DNA of 64,000 bases, from sequence record KP682380.1, one strand, 5' to 3'. How positions within the stretch are numbered: position 1 is the stretch's first letter; the number at the start of each line of letters is the position of its first letter. This stretch comes from Escherichia phage PA27. The position numbers are program-made. This document shows, in pieces, positions 3,001 to 6,000 of the stretch.

Positions 3001-6000
3001 TTTAATCATTTCTTTGTCGGTGAACGTTGTCATGTGTTAGTCCTTATCCACTTCAACGCCATCTTTCAGCGTGATGCCGTGCCAATCATCAGCCCAACTG
3101 GTTAACCCAGGCGCATCAATGCTAGGCATATAGACGCTTGCAGTGTGGTAGCCCTTATCGTTATCAATGCTGGCAACGTGCTCGCCGTTGTATGCGCTCA
3201 GCGTGTCTAGGACACTATAAAACTTTCCTCCGGCTGCCCTGAAATCCTTTACAGCCTTCACAAGACGATTCCACGCTTTTTCCTGTTCTGGCGTCAGGTC
3301 GATTAATTCCTGCAAAGTTGCCATTTCAGTTTTCCTTATATGGGTTAATTTTATTGTGCAGTGTGTTGAACGACGCCCATACCACGTCGTTATACAACTC
3401 AATAACTAGCTCAATTATTTTCCCGATTGCCCAGACAAAAATTAGCGGGGATATCGGTGTCATCAACACGATAAACAGAATGAGAAACAAAAATTCTGTC
3501 GCTCTACTTTTTCGCGGATATTCTTTTCTGAATAATGTAGGCACATCACTCTCCTTTGTTGCTCCTCAAAATTTTATGCCCTGGCGCAAAAGCACGCGTT
3601 TTGTCTTTGCTTATTCGCCAGCCATCCTTGCGCGCCTCTTTTGCACAGCCAGCCCATGACGTACCGATATACTCACCGAAGTCTGGCGACTTATATTTGC
3701 CATCTGTACACTGGAGGCAATCACAATAGAGATGCATGGTGTAACTTGCAGCAATAGCCATATCACTCTCCTTTAGTGCGCAAGTGGTTTTTCCAGCGGT
3801 TTTGCTCCGCGCTGGGCTTTTTGCAAAAACCACAATCCATCATCCCGTAATATTTCATCAACCCCATCCGTCGGTTGCTGAGTCTCACCCACTGCCAGAC
3901 GCCAGGAGCGTTTCTACGAACTAACAGAATCTTTGCTTTACGGTTTTTCATCGTTTTGCTCTCCTGCATCTCTTTGCTGCTCGTCGTGCCGCTGCAATAC
4001 CGGTATGGCGGCGCTTTGGTGTCGGGATGATGTTCTTTGCAATTAGCGCAGAAGCCCAAAAACGAGTCGGATACGGTAACAAGCCGATACATGCCACACG
4101 CATTACTCACCTCTTTTGATGCGAATGCCAGCGGCGCGCTCGGCTTCACTTTGTTCCCAAAACCACTTGTGAAGCGCCATAAGCTTTTCGTCAATCGGTG
4201 CATATTTGCGATTAAAGTAGGCCTGAGCATCTTTCTCAGATTCGTCCGGTAATTCGCCAGGGCCAAACAGTGTGTTATAAATCCATGCTAGTCCGCTCTT
4301 AGCGTCGCCAGTTGCCTGCCATTCGATAATGGCAGCCTGCATGACCAGAATGTTTTTCCCGATTAATAGGTCCAGTTCTTTGTACCGGTTGCGGATGTAT
4401 GCATTCTCGCTTTGTAATTTTGCGTTGCGCTTTTCTGAGGCTTCAAGTAACGCCTGCTTATCGCGTAGAGCTTCTTCCAGTTCAGCAACATGGCATTCAC
4501 TATCAATAAGGTTGTTCTCTGCTGCTTCAAGCTCAACACGCAGCTTCCCAACCGTAAGCGCAATCTCCTCGTTCTCCTGGTCGCGGCGTTTGATGTATTG
4601 CTGGTTTCTTTCCTGTTCATCCAGCAGTGCCAGCACGGTAGCCGGGTTAGCCTCTGCTATGAATTCAGCGTTTGCATAAGCCTGATCATCTGATTCAATC
4701 AGGCAGTTAACATGACATTCCGCAATCACGCCACCGGGTTCTCCTTTCCATTTTTGGCAAACAAAAACTCCTGTTAAATTGCCGTGCTGGTTAACAGATG
4801 TATGCCCTACGATGTAGCTTCCTTTAGTTGCTTTCTCTGCCTTTTCACGCAGTGCCTGATAATTAATTTCGCTCACTTCGAACCTCTCTGTTTACTGATA
4901 AGCTCCAGATCCTCCTGGCAACTTGCACAAGTCCGACAACCCTGAACGGCCAGGCGTCTTCGCTCATCTATGGGATCGCCACACTCACAACAATGAGTGG
5001 CAGATATAGCCTGGTGGTTCAGGCGGCGCATTTTTATTGCTGTGTTGCGCTGTAATTCTTCAATTTCTGATGCTGAATCAATGAGGTCTGCCATCTTTCA
5101 TTAATCCCTGAATTGTTGGTTAATACGCTTGAGGGTGAATGCGAATAATAAAAAAGGAGCCTGTAGCTCCCTGATGATTTTGCTTTTCATGTTCACCGTT
5201 CCTTAAAGACGCCGTTTAACATGCCGATCGCCAGACTTAAATGAGTCGGTGTGAATCCCATTAGCGTTACCGTTTCGCGGTGCTTCTTCAGTACGCTACG
5301 GCAAATGTCATCGACGTTTTTATCCGGAAACTGCTGTCTGGCTTTTTTGATTTCAGAATTAGCCTGACGGGCAATGCTGCGAAGGGCGTTTTCCTGCTGA
5401 GGTGTCATTGAACAAGTCCCATGTCGGCAAGCATAAGCACACAGAATATGAAGCCTGCTGCCAGAAAAATGCATTCTGTTGTTGTCATGCCGGGTCTCTC
5501 TCGTTTGCTTCTGCTTTCGCCGCCATCATTTCCAGCTTTTGTGAAAGGGATGTGGCTAACGTATGAAATTCTTCGTCTGTTTCTACTGGTATTGGCACAA
5601 ACCTGACTCCAATTTGAGCGAGGCTATGTGCCATCTCGATACTCGTTCTTAACTCAACGGGAGATGCTTTGTGCATACAGCTCCCCGTTTATTATTTATC
5701 TCCTCAGCCAGCCGCTGTGCTTTCAGGGGATTTCTGATAACAGAAAGGCCGGGAAATACCCAGCCTCGCTTTGTAACGGAGTAGACGAAAGTGATCGCAC
5801 CTACCCGGATATTATCGTGAGGATGCTTCATCGCCATTGCTCCCCAAATACAAAACCAATTTCAGCCAGTGCCTCGTCCATTTTTTCGATGAACTCCGGC
5901 ACCATCTCGTCAAAACTCGCCATGTACTTTTCATCCCGCTCAACCACGACATAATGCAGGCCTTCACGCTTCATACGTGGGTCATAGTTGGCAAAGTACC

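Follow-up and report, generated by a model that had tools for sequence, protein, structure and literature searches.

Immediately downstream of the Ea22-like gene of Escherichia phage PA27 (record KP682380.1), positions 3037..4103 of the 64,000-nucleotide (nt) stretch analysed here, which we call the window, are filled with small open reading frames (ORFs) on the minus strand. An earlier sequence-only reading had described an operon of translationally coupled small proteins, one of them an unlisted basic peptide of 51 codons, in a part of the genome where anti-host or anti-defence functions might be sought. The locus therefore raises the questions of what kind of region this is, whether the 51-codon frame is a gene, and what its products may do. 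The fullest explanation, and a probable one in our judgement, is that 3037..4103 belongs to the early-left (pL, exo-xis) operon of Shiga toxin (Stx) phage 933W, of which it forms the distal part, variable and dispensable; that the 51-codon ORF is a translated gene we hold to be very probable.

A 933W-type exo-xis region

Over a 1.3-kb stretch around 3037..4103, the window is 100% identical, at matching coordinates, to Stx2 phage 933W (AF125520.1), and VT2-Sakai, Min27 and many other Stx phages are equally 100% identical to it. The minus-strand order is int, xis, L0063, L0064, EaA/DUF551, the five-ORF block, Ea22-like, TraR/orf73, orf61/63/60a-like, exo, bet, gam, kil and cIII. The block thus stands between exo and xis, on the strand of the pL operon, and upstream of it lies the conserved orf60a-orf63-orf61-orf73-ea22 series, annotated in RefSeq and in 933W as DUF1317, DUF1382, hypothetical protein, TraR/DksA and Ea22-like (Table 1). 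Exo-xis regions are transcribed early from pL, and their genes 3′ of ea22 are variable and uncharacterized (PMC8614690). The corresponding regions of phages lambda and Phi24B occupy the same place and strand between exo and xis, have the same conserved upstream block (at 4873..5837 in the window) and carry small dispensable early genes, mostly of unknown function. The five 933W ORFs, in contrast, share no homology with ea8.5 or orf55 of lambda or with the genes that Phi24B has in the same position.

The run of minus-strand genes between the Ea22-like and DUF551 genes is unbroken, as had been proposed, and the limits given for it are exact: 4103 is the A of the 51-codon ATG, and the stop codon of the 95-amino-acid (aa) ORF ends at 3037. 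The run holds five ORFs, of 51, 62, 71, 72 and 95 aa, where six genes had been counted.

The 51-codon frame

The product of the first ORF is as basic as had been described, with an isoelectric point of 12, 14 lysine and arginine residues, no aspartate or glutamate, and a net charge of +14. The label "unlisted" applies only in part. The gene is missing from the 933W record and from RefSeq annotation by the PGAP pipeline, but some GenBank records do annotate it, and it constitutes the family phrog_13831, which the PA27 peptide matches at full length (E=1.7e-27, residues 1-51 against profile positions 1-58 of 58). The basic C-terminal tail also matches phrog_8108 (E=2e-5). Homologues fall into 69 clusters of 51-61 aa, all from Escherichia. 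The family is tiny: a search of 1.84 billion proteins yielded 13 representatives of it (at 50% identity), and one of 185,579 species-representative genomes yielded none. The exact 51-aa protein has been called on 221 contigs and is named in a few GenBank records. About 455 complete E. coli genomes (~8%) carry the peptide sequence, mostly unannotated in RefSeq; in a spread sample of these carriers, no feature was annotated under 31 of 40 matches.

Codon-level tests used 34 distinct DNA alleles from 96 loci, reaching down to 53% aa identity. The ratio of non-synonymous to synonymous change (pN/pS), summed over pairs, was 0.44 in the 51-aa frame, whereas the two remaining sense frames gave 1.01 and 1.18. 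A value of 0.43 was obtained for the antisense frame with the same third positions, which is open here for 30 codons only. On a minimum spanning tree, used as an approximation to independent events, synonymous changes numbered 58 and non-synonymous ones 92, where a synonymous fraction of 0.26 would be neutral (p=6e-4); the other frames were depleted in synonymous change. Every indel (21, 3 and 6-9 nt) preserves the frame. The start codon, ATG or GTG, overlaps the upstream stop by one base (TAATG or TAGTG) in 96/96 loci, and in 94 of them the stop codon shares bases with the ATG that opens an 'MKNRKAK...' gene. Divergent alleles, at 53-65% aa identity, retain the frame, the length and both overlaps. 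The conserved core of the peptide is [KR]R(H)TG[IV]AAA[RK]RxAKKRR; the remotest members retain only this core and an N-terminal LLPYPxRFW-like segment, and the 933W allele differs from most members of phrog_13831 in lacking a 7-residue segment, PHVLMAD. The frame thus displays the marks of protein-coding sequence: it is open, its indels preserve it, and synonymous change is in excess.

Could the frame nonetheless not be a gene? Positions 3952..4102 might be a spacer that is not translated, or might supply the 5′ part of a longer frame of 109 or 155 aa ending at 3763 (VT2-Sap08/ORF-46c/phrog_12350), with conservation that reflects recent common ancestry. Such a view would be in keeping with the missing annotation in 933W, PGAP and most RefSeq genomes, with the 155-aa frame that some records annotate instead, with the close DNA similarity of most alleles and with the existence of frameshifted ones. 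We nevertheless consider it quite unlikely. The long frame, at either length, was rejected on account of internal stops in 31/34 alleles, which arise because a common 21-nt insertion brings in a TGA. Synonymous enrichment is found in the 51-aa frame only, its antisense partner with the same third positions being non-open, and the most divergent alleles still hold to the frame and its overlapping ends. A 39-aa ORF at 3773..3892, annotated in phage ST2-8624, was also rejected, since the frame kept open across alleles is a different one. The 155-aa frame, in which most alleles have stops, is the source of a spurious family, phrog_12350. The 'enterohemolysin 2-like' products of VT2-Sap08 and of Stx2 phage I (ORF-46c/ORF-47) correspond to this frame, at 3763..4230 on the minus strand, and to an antisense frame of 116 aa at 4329..4679 on the plus strand.

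A further reading is that the stretch works at the level of RNA or DNA and not through a peptide, for example as an attenuator, a recombination site or a small RNA. This reading, which might draw on the near invariance of the first ~70 nt in 30 alleles and on the mosaic breakpoints at both flanks, appears highly improbable. The best Rfam match was not significant and lay on the opposite strand (E=0.95), and a search of 2800..5200 at permissive E-values returned nothing meaningful. Folding of 3935..4135 revealed no structured RNA, the fold being no more stable than that of shuffled sequence (z=0.12), and distant alleles vary in the manner of coding sequence.

Four caveats attach to the reading of the 51-codon frame as a gene. 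The alleles came from protein-level searches made in the very frame under test, a bias towards intact frames. A pN/pS of 0.44 indicates moderate constraint only. Frameshifted alleles circulate and are fairly common (P0058, P0060, P0061, P0065 and P0068), one of them, P0065, on 95 contigs. Finally, part of the C-terminal conservation is not at the level of protein, because the codons for ..RRAKR constitute the Shine-Dalgarno sequence of the next gene. Two further sequences, P0245 and P0247, group with the frameshifted or fused alleles; natural fusions occur, and in P0247 the Ea22 N-terminus, MSEINYQALR, is joined to the basic C-terminal motif of the peptide.

Table 1. Features of the 3037..4103 region and its surroundings (window coordinates; ORFs of the block given from start to stop)
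Feature	Position	Strand	Remarks
int	29..1363	-	
xis	1392..1691	-	
EaA/DUF551 gene (L0065)	2410..3033	-	downstream neighbour, same packed run; PF04448, E=1.8e-23
95-aa ORF	3324..3037	-	WP_000212746, phrog_2821
72-aa ORF, DUF4014	3544..3326	-	GTG start; PF13198, phrog_1832
Junction 13-mer AAAGGAGAGTGAT, copy 2	3545..3557	-	71-aa/DUF4014 junction; breakpoints at query 688-699
71-aa ORF	3761..3546	-	WP_000951705, phrog_926
Junction 13-mer AAAGGAGAGTGAT, copy 1	3762..3774	-	K-G-E codons + Shine-Dalgarno + stop; breakpoints at query 471-477
62-aa ORF	3951..3763	-	ATG overlaps 51-aa stop as ATGA
51-aa basic peptide gene, MRVACIGLLPYPTRFWASALIAKNIIPTPKRRHTGIAAARRAAKRCRRAKR	4103..3948	-	ATG; TAATG overlap with Ea22 stop; very probably real, usually unannotated
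Conserved junction module	4101..4138	-	last ~11 codons of Ea22 (..AGIRIKRGE) + Shine-Dalgarno GAGGTGA + TAATG
Ea22-like gene (933W L0069)	4103..4876	-	upstream neighbour; Pfam Ead_Ea22, E=2.6e-35
exo	5828..6508	-	

Gene junctions with embedded ribosome-binding sites

From Ea22 to EaA, successive genes are spaced by -1, -4, +1, +1, +1 and +3 nt. Two of the overlaps quoted in the sequence-only reading, TAATG (4105..4101) and ATGA (3951..3948), are present. The third, a GTG within a stop, is not: the GTG start of the DUF4014 gene (3544) begins 1 nt past the TGA (3548..3546), and the GTG that truly overlaps this TGA (3549) opens a frame of merely 28 codons. The remaining junctions are spaced, as TGA-t-ATG, TGA-t-GTG, TGA-a-ATG and, into EaA/DUF551, TAA-cac-ATG. 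Before every start, at a distance of 6-10 nt, a Shine-Dalgarno sequence of the GGAG or GAGG type makes up the last 2-4 codons of the upstream gene. Stops and starts that overlap or lie a few nt apart, with the Shine-Dalgarno sequence inside the gene before, are the layout of a coupled operon.

Tight packing continues beyond the block to cover nine genes, from orf73 to L0064 (spacings -4, -1, -4, +1, +1, +1, +3 and -8), and is a normal trait of phage operons rather than a statistical oddity. The minus strand has no terminator-like hairpin between 5154 and 2131. Such hairpins flank the run from orf73 to L0064, at 5172..5154, 2131..2110, 2099..2080 and 1721..1702; over 1300..9500 there are 19, against 9.0 expected in shuffled sequence, or about twice as many. 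The start of L0064 (2133..2498, minus strand) is ambiguous. In 933W it is placed at ATG 2498, giving 121 aa and an 89-nt overlap with EaA; the alternative, GTG 2417, has its Shine-Dalgarno sequence, AGGAGG, within the last part of EaA and gives 94 aa and an 8-nt overlap, as annotated in phage ST2-8624.

The idea of a small-protein operon is therefore sustained by a terminator-free, co-oriented run with Shine-Dalgarno sequences inside the ends of upstream genes, and requires amendment in its gene count and in one overlap. The five small accessory genes would lie head to tail on a single transcript, presumably made from pL under N antitermination, and ribosomes that finish one gene could start the next, so that translation would be coupled by reinitiation from gene to gene. 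Coupling of the block is plausible because each start has its Shine-Dalgarno sequence within the end of the upstream gene, in a co-oriented run free of terminators.

The joint between Ea22 and the peptide gene is conserved as a module. In alignments, homology with otherwise different Ea22 genes starts here (BLAST breakpoints 4138-4128, query 113-123). The Ea22 gene ends AAA AGA GGT GAG TAA, which encodes K R G E and a stop and holds the Shine-Dalgarno sequence of the 51-aa gene; the end of lambda Ea22 has the same GCTGGCATTCGCATCAAAGGAGAGTGA as that of 933W. Further down, the 62-aa and 71-aa genes both end AAA GGA GAG TGA, inside an identical 13-mer, AAAGGAGAGTGAT, which occurs in two exact copies; when up to 2 mismatches are allowed there are 6 matches, versus 1.4 expected. 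It is because the Shine-Dalgarno sequence is embedded at this point that the Ea22, 62-aa and 71-aa proteins all end K/R-G-E (AAR GGN GAG plus stop). The significance of the '+GE' C-terminus of Ea22 has been reported as unknown (PMC7093339), and the embedded ribosome-binding sites explain this tripeptide simply.

In lambda (J02459, L097; 957..1147, minus strand), Ea22 ends with the same junction (..AGIRIKGE, GGAGAGTGA). Between Ea22 and ea8.5 lies an unannotated gap of 191 nt with no homologue of the 51-aa gene, in which a GTG overlapping the Ea22 stop opens a frame of 5 codons only. The gap looks like the remnant of a coupled junction. The nin region of lambda offers a parallel: its small ORFs follow one another through junctions of the ATGA or TAATG type, their Shine-Dalgarno sequences lie within the gene before, and mosaic exchange takes place at gene boundaries. 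It differs from the present block in belonging to the pR rather than the pL operon and in its gene families, and an identical 13-mer at two junctions is peculiar to 933W in this comparison.

In weighing the assignment to the exo-xis region as a whole, three considerations pull the other way. Lambda and Phi24B, from which the published exo-xis phenotypes come, are without these five ORFs. Transcription from pL and reinitiation by ribosomes are deduced from the layout of the genes. The role proposed for the products, discussed below, is conjectural and is the weakest step in the account.

Exchange of cassettes at the joints

Homology to E. coli genomes breaks off at window positions 4138-4128, 3948, 3784-3774, 3563-3552, 3543-3538, 3328-3313 and 3034-3019, and every one of these breakpoints is a gene junction. 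Since the breakpoints fall there, the genes behave as cassettes swapped at conserved joints, a form of exchange that is usual in lambdoid phages. They would be independent units, reshuffled by recombination at the junctions among lambdoid prophages and large plasmids. In some relatives, an extra 'MKNRKAKRLF...' paralogue is inserted at the ATGA junction.

Several other occurrences of the peptide gene were noted. On plasmid pCUVET19-1993.3 (L005, 1227..1576), and also in L006, a 345-nt stretch left empty by PGAP contains two overlapping small genes, one for a 58-aa peptide and one for a 58-aa 'MKNRKAKRLFLQ...' paralogue of the 62-aa protein; the first seven codons of this paralogue are the same as those of the next gene. 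Among complete E. coli genomes, 220 of the 518 places with the peptide gene are on plasmids, many of ~90-100 kb, which suggests that phage-plasmids carry the same Ea22/peptide/MKNRKAK module. Two metagenome contigs (L092 and L093) have a divergent 57-aa allele of the peptide after an Ea22-like gene, with no MKNRKAK gene. GemA- and Mor-like proteins are encoded on the same contig as this allele, which places the module in a Mu-like early region as well.

The four other ORFs

Each of the four other ORFs is the sole frame kept open across alleles (23 alleles in the case of the 62-aa ORF). Synonymous excess was weak for the 62-aa ORF (p=0.03) and was also seen for the 71-aa and 72-aa ORFs (p=5e-9 and 2e-5, respectively); for the 95-aa ORF, the fetched loci held too few alleles for this test.

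The 62-aa product is a basic protein of the 'MKNRKAK...' family (WP_000797281, phrog_1380) that ends K-G-E, and its gene follows the peptide gene in 94/96 loci. A C2H2 'jaz' zinc finger was considered for it and rejected: the match scored 16.4 bits against a cutoff of 22.6, and only one histidine follows the CxxC.

The 71-aa protein, which ends K-G-E as well, has four cysteines and is the Cys-rich product that had been described. It may bind metal, as C13, C15, C18 and H62 are invariant. Its AlphaFold2 model, of moderate confidence (pLDDT 74), is a small beta-beta-alpha fold with no fold neighbour in the PDB (best E=2.5) and with uncharacterized phage proteins as its only matches in BFVD.

The 72-aa protein belongs to DUF4014 (PF13198, E=3.8e-25, 88.5 bits against a gathering cutoff of 23.2). 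Its single strongly hydrophobic segment, at residues ~19-37 (Kyte-Doolittle 19-residue maximum 2.68), bears out the membrane-type product that had been predicted. The 95-aa protein is acidic and widespread in Enterobacterales prophages, and its homologues across Enterobacterales are 63-98% identical; its AlphaFold2 model was unusable (pLDDT 52).

What the products may do

None of the products had been given an obvious assignment, and profile and structure searches leave this unchanged, since nothing characterized matched. Pfam and PHROGs scans of all products and their neighbours found only DUF4014, DUF551, Ead_Ea22 and PHROGs without a function, and a Pfam scan of every member of the 71-aa and 95-aa alignments added nothing. 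NCBIfam and PADLOC gave no match for the five products. Sequence searches of the PDB with the 71-aa and 95-aa proteins and with the profile of the peptide family produced no real matches, and literature searches turned up no published work on the five ORFs. The neighbouring Ea22-like protein gave one unexpected match: its residues 145-243 (4145..4443 in the window) align with positions 13-111 of 127 of the PADLOC model 'DpdH' (E=1.4e-36). Either this model was built from prophage Ea22-like sequences or the domain is common to both.

Early N-dependent transcription from pL, dispensability and modulation of lysis versus lysogeny have been published only for lambda and Phi24B (PMC4195576, PMC10789677), and the published exo-xis phenotypes are lysogenization and induction (PMC3824215, PMC10789677). 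The products of the block would most likely act early, modulating host physiology or the choice between lysis and lysogeny, as the rest of the exo-xis region does. For the basic peptide, the mode of action would be binding to nucleic acid or to Ea22, its acidic neighbour.

The products might instead be effectors against the host or its defences, such as anti-restriction proteins, inhibitors of abortive infection or toxic host-takeover peptides. Variable accessory slots in early-left regions often hold counter-defence genes, and the early-left position here is next to gam, kil and cIII; the products of the block are small, diverse and mosaic. Annotators' notes also tie its DNA to the 'Ehly2' determinant of phage C3208, in the words 'similar to enterohaemolysin 2-associated ORF' and 'similar to phage phi-C3208 enterohemolysin2'. 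By these notes, the likeness to Ehly2 lies in the Ea22-like gene and the mis-framed 155-aa ORF over 3763..4230. The C3208 determinant reportedly causes release of ClyA and is not a haemolysin gene (Oscarsson et al. 2002, cited in PMC7093339); ClyA release would fit an envelope-perturbing product, for example the basic peptide or the DUF4014 membrane protein. However, the Ehly2 link comes from database notes. The exo-xis phenotypes on record concern lysogenization and induction, not defence, and the Pfam, PHROGs, NCBIfam, PADLOC, PDB and BFVD searches found no similarity to anything characterized, although the silence of PADLOC says little either way, as its models cover defence systems and not anti-defence proteins. 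Nothing specific points to an anti-host or anti-defence activity; the proposal is not supported, and we think it unlikely.

A likeness to N and Nun, lambdoid phage peptides that are arginine-rich and bind RNA, also deserves mention. Like these, the 51-aa peptide is a short, very basic product of the early pL operon, with a probably helical segment rich in Arg, Lys and Ala (TGIAAARRAAKRRRRAKR). Its basic motif, however, is C-terminal rather than N-terminal and is partly dictated by the downstream Shine-Dalgarno sequence, and neither Pfam nor PDB searches showed similarity to N or Nun. The antiterminators use boxB RNA; for the peptide no boxB-like target was identified, and none was searched for.

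A more specific proposal starts from the company that the peptide gene keeps. The gene upstream of it is nearly always of the Ea22 family, and the peptide gene, the 3′ end of an Ea22-family gene before it and the 'MKNRKAK' gene after it form a fixed module. The invariant linkage to the upstream stop, together with what coupling usually means, suggests Ea22 or nucleic acid as the partner of the peptide. On this proposal, the peptide, the conserved C-terminal end of Ea22-family proteins and the 'MKNRKAK' protein would be co-translated in stoichiometric amounts, and the peptide would bind Ea22 or nucleic acid and contribute to the pro-lysogenic effect of Ea22 or to the 'Ehly2' phenotype, the release of ClyA from E. 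coli K-12. We put this forward as a long shot; if true, a gene left out of RefSeq annotation in hundreds of E. coli genomes would gain a function.

Implications for Stx phages

The exo-xis assignment, which we prefer, describes a block that is real but ordinary for lambda-like phages. Databases already contain the sequence, the region and, as hypothetical proteins, four of its five genes; PHROGs includes the fifth, which usually goes unannotated. The architecture is typical, and these findings leave the understanding of such phage regions unchanged. One modest consequence is for annotation. A conserved small gene, present in ~8% of complete E. coli genomes, including the Stx2 prophages of O157:H7, is usually missed by the reference pipeline, and older records carry a spurious 155-aa frame in its place. 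The '+GE' end of Ea22 gains a simple explanation from the ribosome-binding sites embedded in it. Because the exo-xis region influences the induction of Stx prophages, and hence the release of toxin, the five genes are reasonable candidates for follow-up in phages of the 933W type.

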